From positions 1-64,000 of the forward strand of contig CAWDVP010000004.1 of assembly GCA_963805945.1 (NCBI GenBank): DNA of 64,000 nucleotides, written 5' to 3'. Below the pieces are notes generated by a model. The model was given only the letters and a program-made list of their open reading frames with translations. It ran no database searches and had not been told where the DNA came from. This DNA is from Vulcanimicrobiota bacterium. Lineage in GTDB: Bacteria > Vulcanimicrobiota > Vulcanimicrobiia > Eremiobacterales > Eremiobacteraceae. Position 1 is the stretch's first letter; the number at the start of each line of letters is the position of its first letter. This document shows positions 16,893 through 34,394 of this stretch, piece by piece. The position numbers were made by a program, and so were the translations under genes.

Positions 16893-17076
16893 GAAAGTCA
16901 CCTCCTAGAATTGCACGCGATAAAGAGGCTAGGGCGCTTGGAGAGGACGTAACGAAAACCCTATCAAGTCGAGCAGGCCACCAGACATTGACCTGGGGCG
17001 GCTGCCATAATGGTCGAAGCGCCGCCCATCCGATGCAGAGGCATCGACGAATCGCGAGGCGTACTCATCATGCCTC

Positions 17077-17136
17077 GGCGGTGGAGTCCGCCCAGCGCGT
17101 GTGCTGAACCGCCGCAAGCCGGCCAATGACTCCTGA
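17077..17136 (+). ncRNA. Fluoride (crcB-motif) riboswitch, variant
   Basis: GGCGGTGGAGTCCGCC...AACCGCC...GGCCAATGACTCCTG matches the GGCGATGGAGTTCGCC...AACCGC...GCTRATGACTCCT pattern; lies upstream of an antiporter. Confidence 0.85.
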
Positions 17137-17189
17137 ACGACGCGCAAACGCGCCTTCAGGAGGGAGATCCATGCGATCTTCGATTGGTC

Positions 17190-25835: not shown

Positions 25836-26475
25836 ATGCGTGAAGCAAGCTTTTTCCAATCGACCCGCGGTAGGATCGTCGAATCGCTCCAACGCCGCGG
25901 AGAGCAGACCGTAGCCGAACTGGCGGGCCAGTACGGCCTGACTCCCAATGCCGTCCGGCAGCATCTGGGCCGGCTCGAGCGCGACGGCCTGGTCGAGGAA
26001 GCCGCCCAGCGGCGCGGCCGCACCAAACCCAGCTCGGTCTTCTCCTTGACCCCCGACGGCCGGCGCCTATTCCCGCAGCGCTACAGCACGCTGCTCAAGG
26101 CCGTGCTCGAAGAGATCACCGAGACGCAAGGGTCCGAGAAGGTCGCAGAATTGATGCACGGCATCGGCAAGCGTTCCGCCCGGAAGTACGCCGCCCGCTT
26201 CGAGGGGAAGAACCCGCAAGAGCGGGTCGCCGAGCTGACCTCGATCCTGCGCGAGCAGGGCGTCGTGGCGGACTACGAGGCGAGCAGGCGACGGTTTCGT
26301 GCTGCGCGAGCACACCTGCCCGTTCCGCGACACGGTCGCGACGCACCCGGAAGTCTGCTCGGTCGTGCACACGCTCATGGAAGAAGTCTTGCCCGCGAAA
26401 GCGGAGCAGCGCAGCTCGATCGCCCGCGGCGACGAGGTGTGCGAATTCTCGATCCCCGGCGCCGGAGGCAAATGA
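25836..26475 (+). CDS. SufR-like winged-HTH transcriptional regulator (one frameshift)
   Basis: HTH AVRQHLGRLERDGLV, FPQRY, C-terminal HTCP...VC...C ligands in the shifted frame; divergent from suf. Confidence 0.85.
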
Positions 26476-26882
26476 TGGATTTTCCCAAGTTCCAAGAGCT
26501 GGTCACCAATCGCACCGGGTTCGCGCAGATGCCCGATCCGACCGCGACCGGCGAGTACTTCTCCGACTCGTGCGGCGACATGTACACCTTCTATCTGAAG
26601 GTCGGCGAGGGCGAGCGCATCGACGACATCTCCTATTTCACCACCGGCTGCGGCTTCGGCGTGGCGACCTGCGCCATCCTCACCGAACTGGCCAAGGGCA
26701 AGACCATCGAGGAAGCCGCCCGCATCACGCCGGCCGACATCGAGGCGTACCTGGGCGGGTATCCTGAAAGAAAGAAAGACTATCCCGAGCGCGTCCTCGA
26801 GACGCTGCGCATCACGATCGAGAACTATCGCAAGGGCACCCAGACGACCACGGCGGCGGAGGCCTTCTCCAAGATCAGCTGA
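26472..26882 (+). CDS. IscU/NifU-N-like scaffold protein, atypical ligand set
   Basis: GGAGG Shine-Dalgarno; SCGDMYTFYLK, FTTGCGFGVATC. Confidence 0.85.
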   Translation: MMDFPKFQELVTNRTGFAQMPDPTATGEYFSDSCGDMYTFYLKVGEGERIDDISYFTTGCGFGVATCAILTELAKGKTIEEAARITPADIEAYLGGYPERKKDYPERVLETLRITIENYRKGTQTTTAAEAFSKIS

Positions 26883-28979: not shown

Positions 28980-29036
28980 GGCGGGTGTGCGGGCTTCGGA
29001 TGAGATACGCGTTGTCCTGTCAAAAACGAGCGCATC

Positions 29037-30152
29037 GTGCAGTCATCCGAGATCGGGAGCGGCGCGACGGGCGCCGAGCTCGATCAGCGCATCCGCCGCT
29101 TCGTCGCCCGCAGCGATTCCAACGAGTTGGCGTTCGACCGGCTCGCGCTGGACCTCTTCGCCTACCAGTATGCGTCGGGCGACGTGTACCGCCGGTATTG
29201 CGATCGTCTGGGGCGCACGCCGGCGGACGTCCGGCATTGGGCCCAGGCGCCCGCATTGCCGACCTCGGTGTTCGCGCGCGCTCGGATCGCCTGCTTCCCG
29301 CCGGAGCGGACGCGTTTCACCTTTCTCTCCAGCGGCACGACACGCGCGACGCGCTCGCGGCTCGAGCTCGAGGACGCGGGTCTGTACGACGCCTCGTTGC
29401 TCACCCATTTCCGCGAGCGGGTGCTGCCGGATGCGACCGAGATCCAACTGGTCGCGCTCGCGCCTTCATCCGGCGATGCGCCGCACTCGTCGCTGTCGTA
29501 CATGCTATCGAAGATCAGCGACGTGTTCGGCACCGGGCGCGACCGTTTCTTCATGCGCGACGACGAGCTCGATTTCGAGGGCGCGTGCGCGGCGCTGCGC
29601 GCGGCGACGGCGCCGGTGCTCGTCATCGGCACCGCGTTCGCCTTCGTACATTTCTTCGACCGCTGCCATGCGGCGGGGCTGCGCTTCCAGCTGCCGCTCG
29701 GCAGCCGGGTCGTCGAGACAGGCGGCTTCAAAGGCAAGTCGCGCGAGATCGAGCGCGACGAGCTCTACGGCTGGTTCGCAAGCGTGCTCGGCGTGCCGCG
29801 CGTGCTGTGCCTGTCCGAATACGGCATGTGCGAGTTGGGCAGCCAGTGGTACGACGCCAACCTCGCCGACTATTTCGCCGGCCGCAGCGCGCGGACCAAC
29901 CTCAAGGTCGGACCGCACTGGGCGCGCACGCTCGTGGTGGACCCGGTGACCACGCAGCCGCTGCCCGACGGCGAGACCGGCCTGCTGCAGATCTTCGATC
30001 TGAGCAATCGCGGCTCGGTGGCGGCGATCCTGACCGGCGATCTCGCGCGCCACACCGGCGGCGGCTTCGAGCTGCTCGGCCGGGCGCCCGGCGAGCCGCC
30101 GAAGGGCTGCAGCATCGCGGTGGACGCGGCGTTGGAGCACACAGATGACTGA
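29037..30152 (+). CDS. LuxE-like acyl-protein synthetase
   Basis: FLSSGTT, ETGGFKG, SEYGMCELGSQ, TGDL, LLGR, C-terminal KGCS. Confidence 0.85.
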   Translation: MQSSEIGSGATGAELDQRIRRFVARSDSNELAFDRLALDLFAYQYASGDVYRRYCDRLGRTPADVRHWAQAPALPTSVFARARIACFPPERTRFTFLSSGTTRATRSRLELEDAGLYDASLLTHFRERVLPDATEIQLVALAPSSGDAPHSSLSYMLSKISDVFGTGRDRFFMRDDELDFEGACAALRAATAPVLVIGTAFAFVHFFDRCHAAGLRFQLPLGSRVVETGGFKGKSREIERDELYGWFASVLGVPRVLCLSEYGMCELGSQWYDANLADYFAGRSARTNLKVGPHWARTLVVDPVTTQPLPDGETGLLQIFDLSNRGSVAAILTGDLARHTGGGFELLGRAPGEPPKGCSIAVDAALEHTDD

Positions 30153-31320
30153 TGGAGCGGTCGAATTTATTCGACCGCCCGCGGGTGAGGCGCGCGCGGC
30201 ACTGATCGCGCGCGGCGCCGCGCAGTGGCGCGACTCATCTTCCGCCGTGCGGACCCACGCGCGCCGCGCGCTGGCCGGCGGCGCGTGGTCAGCACCGGCC
30301 GTCGAGGCGGCGCTGGACAACGTGCTGTGGGATCTCGATGAAACACGAGCGGCCGAGCTGGTCGCGCAGACTCCCGAGCTTCGCTCGGGCACTACAGTGC
30401 TCGTCGTGTTGCCGGGCAACATCATCGGCCCGGCCATCCAGTCCGCGTTCTGCGCGGCGGTCGCCGGCGCGCGGGCGATCCTCAAGGCGCCGAGCTCCGA
30501 GCCGGATATCGCGCGCATCGTCGCCGAGCAGTTCGCGCACCTCGGCCCACCGCTCGCGGGCAGCGTGGAGACCCGTTCGTGGGCCGGCGGCGACCTGGAT
30601 GCCGAAGCCGCGGCGCTCGCCGGCGTCGAGCGTCTCATCGTCTTCGGCGAGGATGAGACGATCCGCCAGATCAGCGCGCGCGCGGACGACGCGGTCGCGA
30701 TCATCGGCTACGGCGAATCCTACAGCATCGGCTTCGTGCCTGGGGGCTCCGATCTGGCTCAGGCAGCCGAGGCGGCGGCACGCGACGTCTGCCTTTTCGA
30801 CCAGCGCGGCTGCATGTCGCCGCAGAGCATCTATATAGAAGGCGACCGCGGCCGGTCGGTGCTGTTCGCACACGCGCTGGCGCGCGCGCTCGACGCGCTA
30901 AGCCGCATCTTGCCGTGTGCCCCGCTGCAACCCGGCGAAGCCACGCTGGTGAGCGACTTCGTCAGGCAGATGAACGCGGTCGCGATCGAGGCGCTGCCGC
31001 ATGGCCTCGACACGGTGCTGCGCGGCCCCGCACGCGACGGGGTCCCAGGGTACTGCGTCTCGGCGGAGGCCTTCGGGCAGCCGACGTGCGCCGGTTTCGG
31101 CCGCCTGGTGAGCGTCAAGCCGTGCCCGGATGCGCGCGACGTCGTCGCACAGCTCAAACATTACGGCAGAGCAGTTGAATCGATCGGCGTCGCCGCCGGC
31201 ACCACCGACAAGGATCTGACAGCGCTGCGTGCATCCGGCGCGCTGCGTCTCTGCACGCTCGGCGAAATGCAGCGGCCTCCGTTCGGCTATCGCCCGAAGA
31301 TCAGGGATTTCGAGCGATGA
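30145..31320 (+). CDS. LuxC-like acyl-CoA/acyl-protein reductase
   Basis: PGN, LKAPS, FGEDETI, catalytic FDQRGCMSPQ. Confidence 0.82.
   Translation: MTDGAVEFIRPPAGEARAALIARGAAQWRDSSSAVRTHARRALAGGAWSAPAVEAALDNVLWDLDETRAAELVAQTPELRSGTTVLVVLPGNIIGPAIQSAFCAAVAGARAILKAPSSEPDIARIVAEQFAHLGPPLAGSVETRSWAGGDLDAEAAALAGVERLIVFGEDETIRQISARADDAVAIIGYGESYSIGFVPGGSDLAQAAEAAARDVCLFDQRGCMSPQSIYIEGDRGRSVLFAHALARALDALSRILPCAPLQPGEATLVSDFVRQMNAVAIEALPHGLDTVLRGPARDGVPGYCVSAEAFGQPTCAGFGRLVSVKPCPDARDVVAQLKHYGRAVESIGVAAGTTDKDLTALRASGALRLCTLGEMQRPPFGYRPKIRDFER
30154..30178 (+). repeat. REP family B inside the 5' end of the luxC-like ORF
   Basis: GGAGCGGTCGAA-TTTA-TTCGACCGC. Confidence 0.75.
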
Positions 31321-32678
31321 GCGAGACGAGCGGCACGCAGCTCGGGCGCATCGTCGTCGAGCCGCCGGGGCCTCGCAGCCGCGCACTGTCCGCCCGGCTG
31401 CGCGAAGTGGAGCAGCGCAACGTCACGTTCCTGGACGAGGACTTCCCAGTCTTCTTCGAACGCGGCGCGGGCGCGAATCTCATCGACGTCGACGGCAACG
31501 TCTACGTGGACCTCACCGCCGCGTTCGGCGTCGCTGCCGCCGGGCACAGCAATCCGGCAGTGGTCGAAGCGGTCACCAAGCAGGCAGCGCTGCTGTTCCA
31601 CGGCATCGGCGACGTGCATCCGAACGAAGTCAAGGTCGCGCTGGCCGAGAAGCTGTGCGCGCTGACGCCGGGCGATGGCGCCAAGCGCGTCATCTTCTCA
31701 TCGACCGGCGCGGAGGCCGTCGAGTCGGCGATCAAGACCGCGGCGCTGGCCACCGGCAAGCCCGGCGTGCTCAGCTTCACCTCGGCCTACCACGGGCTCA
31801 CCTACGGTGCCCTCGACGCCACCGACCGCGATTTCTTTCGTGCGCCGTTCTCCAGACAGCTCGGCGGCTTCGCGCGGCGCGCACCCTATCCGTATTGCTA
31901 TCGCTGTCCGCTCGAGCTCACGTATCCGGCGTGCGAGAACGCCTGCCTCAGCTTCGTCGAGGAGGCGATGGCGGGCGAAGGCGGCGACCAGATCGGCGCG
32001 ATCATCATCGAACCCGTCCAGGGCCGCGGCGGTGACGTGCCGGCGCCGTTCGACTGGCTTCTCGAGCTGCGCGAGCTGTGCGATCGCCGCAAGCTCCTGC
32101 TCATCGCAGACGAGGTCTACACCGGCTTCGGCCGGACCGGCCGCTGGTTCGCCTGCGAGCACGCCGGCATCGTGCCGGATCTACTGTGCGTCGGCAAAGG
32201 CATGGCGTCCGGCTTTCCGATCTCCGCCTGCATCGGCCGCGCCGAGGTCATGGACGCCTGGCCGCGTTCCTCCGGCGAGGCGATCCACACGAGCACCTTC
32301 CTCGGTCACCCGACCGGCTGCGCCGCGGCGCTCGCCTCGATCGCGGAGCTGGAGCGGCTCGGCCTCGTGCAACGCGCGGCGACGCTCTCCGGCGATGTCG
32401 GCGAGATGCTTGCGCGGCTCGCCGAGAAGGTCGGTCCTGCCGTCGGCGACGTGCGCGGGCTCGGACTCATGTGGGGCATCGAGTTGGTGCACGAGGACGG
32501 CTCGCCGGATCAGCCGCGTGCCGCCGCGGCCGTCAATGGCGCGTTGCGCCGCGGCGTGGTCGTGCTCGCCGGCGGCCCCGACAGCAACGTCTTGGCCCTG
32601 TCGCCGCCGCTCGTGATCAGCCGCGAGCAGCTCGAATTCGGCGTCGATGTGCTCGCTGCGGCGCTCGCGGATGTGTGA
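31317..32678 (+). CDS. Class III PLP aminotransferase (GabT-like omega-transaminase)
   Basis: DVDGNVYVD, TGAEAVE, EPVQGRGG, DEVYTGFGRTG, PLP lysine in VGKG. Confidence 0.93.
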   Translation: MSETSGTQLGRIVVEPPGPRSRALSARLREVEQRNVTFLDEDFPVFFERGAGANLIDVDGNVYVDLTAAFGVAAAGHSNPAVVEAVTKQAALLFHGIGDVHPNEVKVALAEKLCALTPGDGAKRVIFSSTGAEAVESAIKTAALATGKPGVLSFTSAYHGLTYGALDATDRDFFRAPFSRQLGGFARRAPYPYCYRCPLELTYPACENACLSFVEEAMAGEGGDQIGAIIIEPVQGRGGDVPAPFDWLLELRELCDRRKLLLIADEVYTGFGRTGRWFACEHAGIVPDLLCVGKGMASGFPISACIGRAEVMDAWPRSSGEAIHTSTFLGHPTGCAAALASIAELERLGLVQRAATLSGDVGEMLARLAEKVGPAVGDVRGLGLMWGIELVHEDGSPDQPRAAAAVNGALRRGVVVLAGGPDSNVLALSPPLVISREQLEFGVDVLAAALADV

Positions 32679-32697
32679 AGATCATCGCGAATGCGCG

Positions 32698-32748
32698 TTA
32701 TGCACAACTCTTCCACAACAAAGTTTTTCAAACCGCCGCTTATCCACA
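32698..32748 (+). promoter_or_regulatory. Cluster of co-oriented DnaA-box-like 9-mers
   Basis: TTATGCACA (32698), TCTTCCACA (32709), TTTTTCAAA (32724), perfect TTATCCACA (32740). Confidence 0.65.
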
Positions 32749-32778
32749 ATTTAATGGCAAAACGAACAGTCGTTCCGC

Positions 32779-32807
32779 TTGTGCTGATTAAGGCCTGATT
32801 GTATACT
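32779..32807 (+). promoter_or_regulatory. Sigma70 promoter
   Basis: TTGTGC-N17-TATACT. Confidence 0.7.
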
Positions 32808-32813
32808 GCCACT

Positions 32814-33067
32814 ACACCGACCGCGGTGCCGGGGAAGCGAAGCAACAACGGATGGTGCGAGTGCAATCGCACAGAGCTGAGCGCCTCGGGAATGGTACCC
32901 CTGCCGTTGGGGACTAGGCTTCCAGCCCAGTGATGGCCCTGGGGATCGCGTCCCAGTAAAGCCAAAGTAAGCGAACCGGCAACGGCCGTTGACCAGTTCG
33001 AAAATGAGGCTTCCGCGCCATCGACCAGACCAGTTACGACCGGGCTCACGCCCGGTCGTTACTGTTT
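32814..33067 (+). ncRNA. Unidentified structured RNA (sRNA or cis-regulatory leader)
   Basis: Promoter upstream, terminator-like hairpin downstream, 5'/3' closing helix and five internal hairpins; no credible ORF. Confidence 0.6.
33031..33067 (+). terminator. Intrinsic-terminator-like hairpin
   Basis: ACGACCGGGC-TCAC-GCCCGGTCGT followed by TACTGTTT. Confidence 0.6.
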
Positions 33068-33074
33068 CCGGGGT

Positions 33075-34394
33075 ATGACATCGGCCCGGCTCTCGCGAAG
33101 AACTGCCGACGTGTCCTCGTCGCTGCAAGAGACCGCCGCTCCGTACGAAGCGCTCATCGAGCAACCCACCCCCCACGCCCGCGCGCGCTACGGCGCGTTC
33201 GCCTACCGCGAGTTCCGCCTGTTGTGGTTCGGCCTGCTCGTGTCCAATACGGGCGGCTGGATGGCCATTCTCGCCCAGGGCTGGCTCGTCGTCGAGCTGG
33301 CGCCCAACGCGGCCCTCGCCTCGCTATACCTCGGCCTGGTGGGCTTTGCGCGCGCGGTGCCCGTCTTCGCGCTTTCAGGCGTCGCAGGGGCGCTCGCCGA
33401 CCGCGTCGATCGCCGCCGTCTCCTCGCGGTCAGCCAGGCCGTGCTCGCGTTGCTCACCCTCGCACTCGGCATGCTCGCGCACACCGGCGCGGTGCGCGTG
33501 TGGCACGTGCTCGTCATCGCAGCCTGCTCGGCCGCCGCGAGCTCGTTCGAGGCGCCGACGCGGCAGTCGCTCGTCTCGATCCTGGTGGGTAAGCGCGAGC
33601 TGATGAACGCGATCGGGCTCAACTCCGCGGCCTTTAACGCCCCCGCGATCGTCGGACCGGCGCTCGGCGGCATCGTGGTGAGCGAGTACGGCGCAGCGAC
33701 GTGCTTCTTCATCAACGCCGCCTCGTACGCGGCGGTGCTGGCGGCCGTGCTGCTCATGAAGCCGAAACCAGCCCTCGGGCCACCGCCAGAGCACGACATC
33801 TGGCATGACGTCATCGAAGGCTTCCTTTATGTACGGGCCAACACGCTGATCTTCGCGGTGCTCGGACTAGGCGCGCTCCAGGCGCTCGTCGCCCGGCCCT
33901 ACATGCAGCTGCTGCCGGCGTTCTCGAAGTCGGTGCTCGGGGGCAATGCTCGGGAGCTGGGCATCCTCATGGCCGTGGCGGGCGCCGGAGCGCTCGCAGG
34001 CTCGATCATCACCGCGTTCCTCGGCGCCCGCCAGCCGCGCGGGCCGCTCTTGCTCGGCACCGCGGCCGCATCGGGCCTTTTCCTCGCCCTGCTCGCTTTC
34101 ACCAAGACGATGTGGCCTGCGGCGATCGCGCTGCTATGTCTCGGCACCGTCGCCATGCTGTTCTTGGGCACGGCGAACACGATCTTGCAGACGCACACGC
34201 CGATGGCGATGCGCGGGCGCGTCATGTCGATCTACACGATGATCTTCTTGGGCTTCATGCCGCTAGGCTCGTGGCTGCTCGGCTCGATCGCCAGCGTCAC
34301 CTCGCTGCCGGTGGCGTTCGCGCTCGGCGGCGCCGTGTTGATCGCCGGCGTGGCGATCACCGCGCGGCGCGCCGACGTCCGCGCCCTGACCTAA
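33075..34394 (+). CDS. MFS transporter (H+ antiporter/macrolide-efflux-like)
   Basis: FRLLWFG, GALADRVDRRR, MRGRVMSIY; about 12 TM helices. Confidence 0.9.
   Translation: MTSARLSRRTADVSSSLQETAAPYEALIEQPTPHARARYGAFAYREFRLLWFGLLVSNTGGWMAILAQGWLVVELAPNAALASLYLGLVGFARAVPVFALSGVAGALADRVDRRRLLAVSQAVLALLTLALGMLAHTGAVRVWHVLVIAACSAAASSFEAPTRQSLVSILVGKRELMNAIGLNSAAFNAPAIVGPALGGIVVSEYGAATCFFINAASYAAVLAAVLLMKPKPALGPPPEHDIWHDVIEGFLYVRANTLIFAVLGLGALQALVARPYMQLLPAFSKSVLGGNARELGILMAVAGAGALAGSIITAFLGARQPRGPLLLGTAAASGLFLALLAFTKTMWPAAIALLCLGTVAMLFLGTANTILQTHTPMAMRGRVMSIYTMIFLGFMPLGSWLLGSIASVTSLPVAFALGGAVLIAGVAITARRADVRALT

Follow-up and report, generated by a model that had tools for sequence, protein, structure and literature searches.

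Between a class-III aminotransferase gene and a gene for a transporter of the major facilitator superfamily (MFS) lies a locus with a promoter at its start and a terminator at its end, and the question that it raises is what stands between the two: an RNA with a role of its own, or a regulatory element of one of the neighboring genes. The locus occupies positions 32779-33067 of the + strand of the window, by which the whole analyzed stretch is meant (64,000 nucleotides (nt), positions 1 to 64,000 of contig CAWDVP010000004.1 of assembly GCA_963805945.1, from a Vulcanimicrobiota bacterium). According to the results presented here, it is a stand-alone gene for a previously undescribed RNA family, restricted to the Eremiobacteraceae (phylum Eremiobacterota, or WPS-2), and both the existence and the fold of this family are firm. 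For the role of the RNA, a probability of roughly 55% is assigned to the reading in which it belongs to a new family of stable, structured RNAs that would act in trans, would associate with themselves into a particle, and would be made from a promoter tied to replication and DNA damage by its sequence motifs. A preliminary description of the locus, made from its letters, had left two proposals side by side, a new lineage-specific class of non-coding RNA and a riboswitch-like attenuator of the MFS gene. The first has been borne out by the lack of an Rfam match, the family-restricted occurrence in single copy, the covariation, and the contigs found in RNA libraries, while the second is disfavored.

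The RNA gene and its fold

A covariance model of the RNA, R1, was built on a core of 212 positions; its match in the window scores 222 bits, and it finds the RNA in 29 of the 31 family genomes other than the window's own genome, G000 (30 of 32 with G000). The elements of the gene are as follows.

32816-33029, + strand: RNA species found in RNA libraries, 214 nt, extent taken from library contigs (covariance-model core 32814-33026)
32816-32827, + strand: 5' hairpin ACCG/CGGU, invariant
32829-32889, + strand: Domain 1, closed by the helix CCGGGG/CCUCGG (32829-34 with 32884-89), which encloses the conserved strand GCAACAACGG and the hairpin 32855-32872
32855-32872, + strand: hairpin GUGCGA/UCGCAC, loop GUGCAA with the palindrome UGCA
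32847-32851 with 32904-32908, + strand: likely pseudoknot AACGG/CCGUU, with CCGUU in the loop of the hairpin 32898-32912
32894-33026, + strand: Domain 2, closed by GGU/ACC (32894-96 with 33024-26)
32898-32912, + strand: Domain 2 hairpin CCCC/GGGG
32914-32930, + strand: Domain 2 hairpin CUAGGC/GCCCAG
32932-36 with 33018-22, + strand: Domain 2 long-range helix GAUGG/CCAUC
32939-32956, + strand: Domain 2 hairpin CUGGGG/UCCCAG, loop AUCGCG
32961-33010, + strand: Domain 2 variable arm, GCC/GGC (32961-63 with 33008-10)
32972-76 with 32996-33000, + strand: Domain 2 helix CGAAC/GUUCG
32980-32991, + strand: Domain 2 apical hairpin CAAC-GGCC-GUUG
33031-33067, + strand: intrinsic terminator, CAGUUACGACCGGGC - UCAC - GCCCGGUCGUUACUG, then UUU

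The fold is carried by covariation. RNAalifold, applied to plain MAFFT alignments, gave 64 pairs for 20 sequences, 26 of them with compensatory changes, and 51 pairs for 23 core sequences, 20 of them with such changes. When a structure written by hand was laid over a model-fitted alignment of 30 distinct sequences, an alignment that leans towards the model, 97.3% of the 1714 cells held standard pairs and 26 of the 58 pairs had changed on both sides; the check by homologues and covariation that the preliminary description had proposed thus came out in favor of a functional RNA. The observed covariation was reached by 0 of 500 shuffles, and controls in which the partners were slid along the sequence were paired in 33-44%, with 0-8 compensatory pairs. 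Many of the pairs are G-U, which fixes the + strand as the transcribed one. Within Domain 1, compensatory changes were found in 4/6 and 5/6 pairs, and in Domain 2 every helix that varies shows them. A two-domain fold supported by covariation has in this way been shown.

Several details of the structure first drawn from the letters had to be revised. The cores of its five hairpins are real and covary, but the one at 32914-32930 is formed in the register CUAGGC/GCCCAG, and the extensions UGGU/ACUA and UGGC/GCCA were abandoned, as their bases form the long-range helices GGU/ACC and GAUGG/CCAUC, both with compensatory changes. The helix that had been thought to join the two ends of the RNA fared unevenly: its GGAAGC/GCUUCC half is paired in only 34% of cells, and its GGUGC/GCGCC half, although paired in 95.9% of cells, shows one-sided changes only and overlaps GAUGG/CCAUC. 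For the segment GCCGTTG, two partners had been offered. The pairing of CCGUU with AACGG at 32847-32851 is kept, both strands being invariant and 100% complementary in 29/29 sequences, and these complementary strands likely form an inter-domain pseudoknot, whereas the second partner, at 32980-86, is specific to the window's genus.

The earlier statement that the ~250 nt contain no credible open reading frame (ORF) remains valid: the only + strand ORF inside the RNA region, at 32799-32933, encodes 44 amino acids (aa) and starts upstream of the RNA 5' end. The terminator hairpin of 10 base pairs (bp) was recovered independently by a terminator scan as a G+C-rich hairpin at 33036-33059 followed by TACTGTTT, and 5 of its 10 pairs show compensatory changes across genera.

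Expression of the RNA is supported by assembled contigs from RNA libraries. In six metatranscriptome runs, about a quarter of the words sampled from 32600-33300 was recovered; the runs aligned to the window were four, each from a different study, with no DNA run set beside them. The word shares of 20 further runs (0.24-0.41) do not count as evidence here. Contigs with 0 differences from the window cover 32816-33029 (X12), 32831-33028 (X16), 32828-33031 (X18), and 32831-33029 (X19, in which an adapter-like tail precedes 32831). Their 3' stops fall within 4 nt of one another, with no loose ends, which is a weak hint of a true end. In RNA libraries, the new RNA therefore takes the form of a species of about 214 nt (32816-33029), without the terminator hairpin, and the discrete transcript of ~250 nt that had been anticipated is represented by contigs in such libraries, but is shorter and ends before the terminator. 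Cover in the four runs was absent at 32696-32815 and 33032-33300, a result that is not used as evidence, and two short mismatched pieces of X12 at 32601-32673 probably come from other organisms.

Palindromic loops and the composite promoter

Three loops of the RNA are self-complementary. The loop P3 holds a self-complementary tract of at least 4 nt in 29/29 sequences, UGCA or UUGCAA (UUGCAA in most genera), with UUCGAA in genus g9. In the loop P8, a tract of at least 4 nt is found in 30/30 sequences, this being CGCG except in L060, L071, and L072, where it is CAUG. The distal hairpin carries a palindrome in 30/30 sequences, with CCGG in genera g3, g4, g5, g7, and g8, CUAG in g2, g9, and g10, UGUACA in g6, and GGCC in g1; the distal palindromes were searched by script over the whole distal stretch of 29-31 nt, and the position of the apical loop was placed by eye from printed folds. 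The control loop P6 is palindromic in 1/30 sequences. All of the variants replace one palindrome by another (UGCA/UCGA; CGCG/CAUG; CCGG/CUAG/GUAC/GGCC), and none breaks the palindrome. The changes affect adjacent central bases, and at least 5 double substitutions are needed to account for them. An additional 8-nt palindrome, ACCGCGGU (32820-32827; ACCGCGCGGU in genus g3), overlaps the 5' hairpin.

A precedent for this kind of variation exists in large bacterial RNAs. PMC12286853 describes symmetric kissing loops, seen by cryo-electron microscopy, in OLE (L9.3, with GGCC changing to GAUC or AGCU) and GOLLD (L21a, with GC changing to CG), and it treats covariation of adjacent loop bases between palindromes as support for symmetric kissing loops, because adjacent bases cannot pair within one chain. 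The same sequence behavior was found in all three loops of the new RNA. Since these loops vary from palindrome to palindrome only, they would be expected to pair with copies of the same RNA, and self-association is, on these grounds, plausible.

The second group of motifs lies upstream of the RNA, in its promoter region.

32698-32748, + strand: three direct DnaA-box-like 9-mers, TTATGCACA (32698-32706), TCTTCCACA (32709-32717), and TTATCCACA (32740-32748)
32749-32762, + strand: A/T-rich spacer, 3' of the 9-mers
32763-32776, + strand: SOS-box-like palindrome CGAACAGTCGTTCC, its 3' end 2 nt short of the -35 hexamer
32779-32784, + strand: -35 hexamer TTGTGC, followed by a 17-nt spacer and the -10 hexamer TATACT (32802-32807), as read in the sequence

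The TTGTGC-N17-TATACT promoter named in the preliminary description was found in place and is conserved: TATACT is kept in 28 of 29 related loci, the exception (L054) being TATGAT, and TTG stands upstream of the -10 hexamer in each of the 29. For the 17-nt spacing, counts were made only for the window and, by eye, for L050. A consensus promoter scan did not list the promoter of the new RNA, because TTGTGC fails the 4-of-6 rule of the scan. That a conserved promoter of the sigma-70 type drives the new RNA is regarded as shown.

In the 29 related promoters, one to three (Y)TATCCACA boxes are followed by an A/T-rich spacer, a GAAC-N4-GTTC-like palindrome, TTG, and TATACT. The proximal box is exactly TATCCACA in 27 of the 29 and TGTCCACA in the remaining 2; in the window, the two upstream copies are degenerate relative to TTATCCACA at 32740. 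We take TTATCCACA to be the DnaA-box consensus. G000, 2.3 Mb in size, has 10 exact occurrences of this 9-mer, and near-copies of it cluster beside dnaA there. Boxes of the kind expected for a member of the DnaA regulon are thus present at the promoter of the new RNA, where DnaA would be predicted to bind if this consensus holds. An origin of replication was considered as another reading of the boxes and rejected: the contig shows no GC-skew switch at the promoter, which is therefore not an origin.

The first half of the SOS-like box, GAAC, is kept in 29/29 related promoters, and its second half is GTTC in 18, ATTC in 7, GTTT in 2, and GTCC in 2, so that all 29 fit GAAC-N4-(G/A)T(T/C)(C/T). The related sequence CGAAC-N4-GTTCG is the LexA box of the Gram-positive type. 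In G000, boxes of this form precede an imuA-like RecA/IMS polymerase pair, a DinG-like helicase, ComEC, and a class II ribonucleotide reductase; the imuA-like/IMS pair and the DinG-like helicase are classic SOS genes. The composite arrangement of DnaA box, SOS-like box, and sigma-70-type promoter has no further copy in G000. Taken together, the motifs suggest a link between the RNA and the replication or DNA-damage state of the cell.

Several other observations on such motifs were made in G000. Upstream of the 6S RNA gene, at C2:379060-379189, GATCCACA is followed by GGAACGAACGTCC, a pair that resembles the DnaA-box and SOS-like pair of the new RNA. At C6:293371 (+ strand), three tandem DnaA-box-like motifs (ATCCACA, GTCCACA, CTCCACA) are accompanied by a spacer, CACAGTTTCAAAAG, that resembles the promoter spacer of the new RNA. 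The imuA-like RecA-fold gene and the IMS ORF (Y-family polymerase-like) lie on the same strand at C6:299693-302032 (- strand), and ahead of them, directly after TATAAT, stands a perfect CGAACATACGTTCG box at C6:302012, so that the whole looks like an SOS mutagenesis cassette. The class II (B12-dependent) ribonucleotide reductase is encoded at C5:46142-48457 (+ strand), where a CGAACGGCCGTTCG box lies upstream of a TTGAAA-N17-TATAAT promoter-like site; its match to an intein-splicing domain is weak (34 bits, under the cut-off of 35.8). Most of the CGAAC-N4-GTTCG matches stem from a REP-like palindromic repeat, approximately GTAGGGGC-CGAACTnnAGTTCG-GCCCCTAC, of which many copies are scattered through the genome (C1:118166, C1:119486, C2:24285, C4:80249, and others in G000; 55603, + strand, in the window).

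Self-association weighed against other explanations

The reading preferred here can be set out as a sequence of steps. Transcription would start at the 5' end, 32816, or at most 2 nt from it, and the terminator hairpin, which is removed from other stable RNAs, would be taken off by 3' processing in this RNA as well. The invariant AACGG/CCGUU pseudoknot would tie the two domains together, and the RNA would act in trans and not on the neighboring MFS gene. The loops at 32861-66, 32945-50, and 32984-87, and possibly the 5' palindrome too, would each pair with the same loop of another copy in symmetric kissing contacts, so that a dimer or a closed oligomer of few copies would result; with two-fold contacts of three different kinds in each chain, the simplest fit would be a tetramer of D2 symmetry, and a larger lattice or cage is possible. 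Through the motifs of DnaA-box and LexA-operator type that stand just before the -35 hexamer, synthesis of the RNA would be tied to the replication and DNA-damage status. The most specific version of this proposal, an RNA-only homo-oligomer of the 214-nt RNA with three, perhaps four, symmetric kissing contacts per chain, under DnaA/LexA control and with part of the pool maybe covalently circular, is advanced tentatively, with the odds somewhat against it.

A number of points weigh against the preferred reading. As to the structure, covariation says nothing on the 5' hairpin or the pseudoknot, both of which are invariant. For 32816-33029, folding is energetically no better than for shuffled sequences (z = -0.33; 76 of 200 shuffles fold as well), which leaves "highly structured", the wording of the preliminary description, true of the covariation but not of the energy; a value of z = -2.9 for 32810-33067 is gone when the terminator hairpin is left out. 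The changes of the palindromes, at least 5 events, are shared by related genomes and may not all be independent, the distal GGCC of the window's genus sits in a 4-nt loop of poor kissing geometry, and the palindromic loops could be sites for a dimeric protein. As to the promoter, the SOS-like box does not overlie the -35 hexamer but is placed upstream of it, in 11 of the 29 promoters its second half-site is not GTTC, and binding of DnaA and of LexA is predicted from consensus sequences only. The library support consists of assembled contigs, which do not show strand, level, or true ends and come from libraries that may hold DNA, and a head-to-tail joint described below occurs in 1 of 4 runs. 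Finally, the invariable linkage of the RNA to the upstream aminotransferase operon (29/29 loci) is not explained by a trans-acting particle.

The strongest competitor, which we nevertheless consider unlikely, accepts the same stable RNA but makes it a monomer in a ribonucleoprotein, as a scaffold, a sponge, or a regulator of a protein, with the loops read by a dimeric protein. All of the evidence for a stand-alone conserved RNA in RNA libraries fits this explanation equally well, most abundant bacterial RNAs of similar size are known to work with proteins, and the GGCC tetraloop of genus g1 is a poor kissing partner. The pattern of loop changes speaks for the other side. Proteins that read loops seldom tolerate swaps of GC to CG or of CG to UA at the loop center, and in this RNA three separate loops have kept their self-complementarity only, not their sequence. 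Moreover, no candidate protein partner was found, and no TROVE/Ro protein is present in G000 (82% complete). A relation to Y RNA was tried on the same basis and rejected: PF05731 (TROVE/Ro) had 0 matches in G000 and none among 10 neighbors scanned with Pfam, 4 of which had no match to any family.

A second explanation, quite improbable in our view, is that the RNA, once mature, is covalently closed into a natural circle of 214 nt. It is prompted by the X12 contig, which measures 244 nt (214 + 30), has a mean word depth of 7.19, and is self-closing: 33029 passes unambiguously into 32816, and no letters are inserted between them. A closed 214-nt sequence in the word graph would give a contig of this type. 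The joint implies a 214-nt species without the terminator that is either circular or was joined during library preparation, and both cases place the ends at 32816 and 33029. Position 32816 lies 9 nt after the -10 hexamer, in a conserved YACAC, and 33029 precedes the extended terminator stem by one base. If a short RNA is abundant, its two ends can become joined by ligation or template switching while the library is prepared, and since the joint was seen in one run of four, whose library is listed as 'RANDOM PCR', an end-joining artefact may be its source. A circle is further disfavored by its 5' end, which coincides with the expected transcription start and would there carry a triphosphate, and no self-cleaving ribozyme family of Rfam matches. 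Circles made generally by the RtcB ligase were considered and rejected, as G000 has no RtcB and the enzyme is patchily distributed among family genomes (12 of 32; in the window's genus, 1 of 7).

The two remaining explanations of this group make the RNA an element in cis of one of its neighbors.

31317-32678, + strand: class-III aminotransferase gene (Pfam), the last gene of an operon with a LuxC-like reductase
33075-34394, + strand: MFS_3 transporter gene (Pfam)

That the RNA is a riboswitch-like or attenuating leader of the MFS_3 transporter, working through the terminator 33031-33067, is now very improbable. The proposal was a natural one, as the MFS gene was correctly seen to follow the RNA and does so on the same strand in 25/30 loci, the terminator of the window ends 7 nt before the ATG of that gene, and in its size and complexity the RNA is comparable to some aptamers. 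The preliminary description had suggested that a variable downstream gene would point to action in trans, and variable it is. The MFS gene is missing in 5/30 loci, where RNA and terminator are kept, and in three of these (L050, L067, and L069, from genera g2 and g9) a convergent DUF4139 gene comes after the terminator; with RNA and terminator intact and the next gene convergent, the RNA is therefore not a 5' leader in these three loci. Further, the contigs from RNA libraries stop short of the terminator, one of them with 33029 joined to 32816, the DNA just 3' of the terminator is unlike between the species of the window's genus, and inspection of the alignments by eye, with no formal search made, showed no conserved pairing that would compete with the terminator arm.

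Equally improbable is a cis element of the upstream LuxC-like/aminotransferase operon, be it an RNA derived from the 3' untranslated region or a stabilizer of the messenger RNA. This explanation would account for the constant neighborhood: in all 29 loci that hold upstream DNA, the aminotransferase gene stands upstream on the same strand, at a distance of 80-207 nt. The intergenic spacer, however, holds a conserved promoter of the RNA's own, the joint in the RNA library puts the 5' end at 32816, behind the -10 hexamer, and in sister families the orthologous aminotransferase gene is directly followed by another gene, with no such RNA between. The operon itself spans 28985-32678 (+ strand) in the window and encodes a 387-aa protein without a Pfam match, a LuxC-like acyl-CoA reductase, and the class-III aminotransferase.

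Distribution and relation to known RNAs

The explanation that fares worst, a divergent member of a known family (6S, SRP, RNase P, tmRNA, Y RNA, raiA, OLE, or others), can be dismissed almost entirely: such RNAs resemble the new one in size, presence in RNA libraries, and single-copy conservation, but no Rfam 15 family matched 32600-33200 at E ≤ 10, barring two chance-level matches, both on the minus strand, and G000 (82% complete) has proper genes elsewhere for 6S (C2:379189), SRP (C6:125435), RNase P RNA (C6:171935), and tmRNA (C3:197319), all above the cut-off. The preliminary description, which had found no signature of the known classes that it named, was right in this respect. At the gathering score, Rfam 15 gave a single match in the whole window and none at the new RNA; that match, at 17068-17142 (+ strand), is a fluoride riboswitch (crcB motif) with 35.8 bits against a gathering score of 34.

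The RNA is a single-copy gene in G000 and appears confined to the family. BLAST with 32779-33075 gave one match each in 23 of 24 genomes of the same family and none in 16 other genomes of the class. The two family genomes in which R1 found no match are 72% and 55% complete. In sister families, R1 matched 2 of 116 genomes (G091 and G100) with ~22 bits only, in what reads as coding DNA and without aminotransferase or MFS neighbors, and these matches were taken as chance; in 70 genomes from 19 families elsewhere in the phylum, R1 found none. Three genomes flagged as unpublished, G010, G013, and G016, are included in the genome tallies and in alignments A1-A3.

Wider collections gave a consistent picture. 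Of 18 exact-pattern matches in a species collection, 12 are labelled Candidatus Eremiobacterota, Vulcanimicrobiota, or Eremiobacteraceae; among the other 6, 5 carry an RNA sequence that is also present in a family genome (3 by check, 2 by eye), and L041 is too short to compare. A pattern scan of metagenomes yielded 3 true members by the model among the 80 loci listed, with no new loop variants. In the literature, supplements standing outside the search, no described non-coding RNA of Eremiobacterota (WPS-2) was found among the papers listed, and PMC10434106, in the passages covered, is not about an Eremiobacterota RNA of such a kind. Eremiobacterota is a widespread, largely uncultured phylum of soil bacteria. 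The presence of the RNA in nearly every genome of the family and in the RNA libraries of four studies makes it likely that it matters to the cells.

Among well-known stable RNAs, 6S RNA, RNase P RNA, tmRNA, and SRP RNA are comparable in being single-copy genes with their own promoter and terminator, in the apparent removal of that terminator, and in that they, too, assemble from environmental RNA libraries. In contrast to 6S and the processed stable RNAs, the new RNA has two domains and a pseudoknot, and it lacks a long closing helix interrupted by a central bubble. The dimerization initiation site of human immunodeficiency virus 1 (HIV-1) is a kissing complex of palindromic hexaloops; it resembles the new RNA in its self-complementary apical loop of 6 nt (compare UUGCAA and UUCGAA), but the new RNA is cellular and bacterial, has three such loops, and stands in no context of genome packaging.

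Closer in kind are OLE, ROOL, and GOLLD, which, according to PMC12286853, are likewise stand-alone, conserved, multi-helix bacterial RNAs with palindromic apical loops that covary at adjacent central bases. They are several hundred nt long, against 214 nt for the new RNA, and no homology to them was found, the new RNA having no Rfam match. The new RNA differs from them also in its restriction to one Eremiobacterota family and in the DnaA-box and SOS-box-like motifs of its promoter, and whereas homo-oligomers of the naked RNA are known for OLE, ROOL, and GOLLD, the oligomers of the new RNA are predicted from its loops. In size, the new RNA is nearer to the manA, EGFOA, and 57-nt motifs, RNAs of less than about 200 nt that build higher-order RNA-only assemblies according to bioRxiv 10.64898/2026.07.01.735769, and which indicate that a small RNA can self-assemble. 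With these, the new RNA has no known sequence relation, and it has no Rfam match. The manA and EGFOA families are presumably among those held in Rfam.

If the most specific version of the preferred reading is true, no smaller natural cellular RNA with several self-assembly interfaces would have been found from sequence alone, and the new RNA would be the first of this kind to be tied to replication or DNA-damage signalling. The loop covariation amounts to a concrete prediction that would be cheap to test, namely that the 214-nt transcript forms oligomers. As natural RNA-only assemblies have only just been recognized, a small, tractable example would help to define the rules of RNA quaternary structure.

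A further observation on the window concerns a gene at 25836-26882 (+ strand), which encodes a 348-aa protein that combines an N-terminal winged-helix/ArsR-type DNA-binding domain with a NifU_N iron-sulfur scaffold domain.

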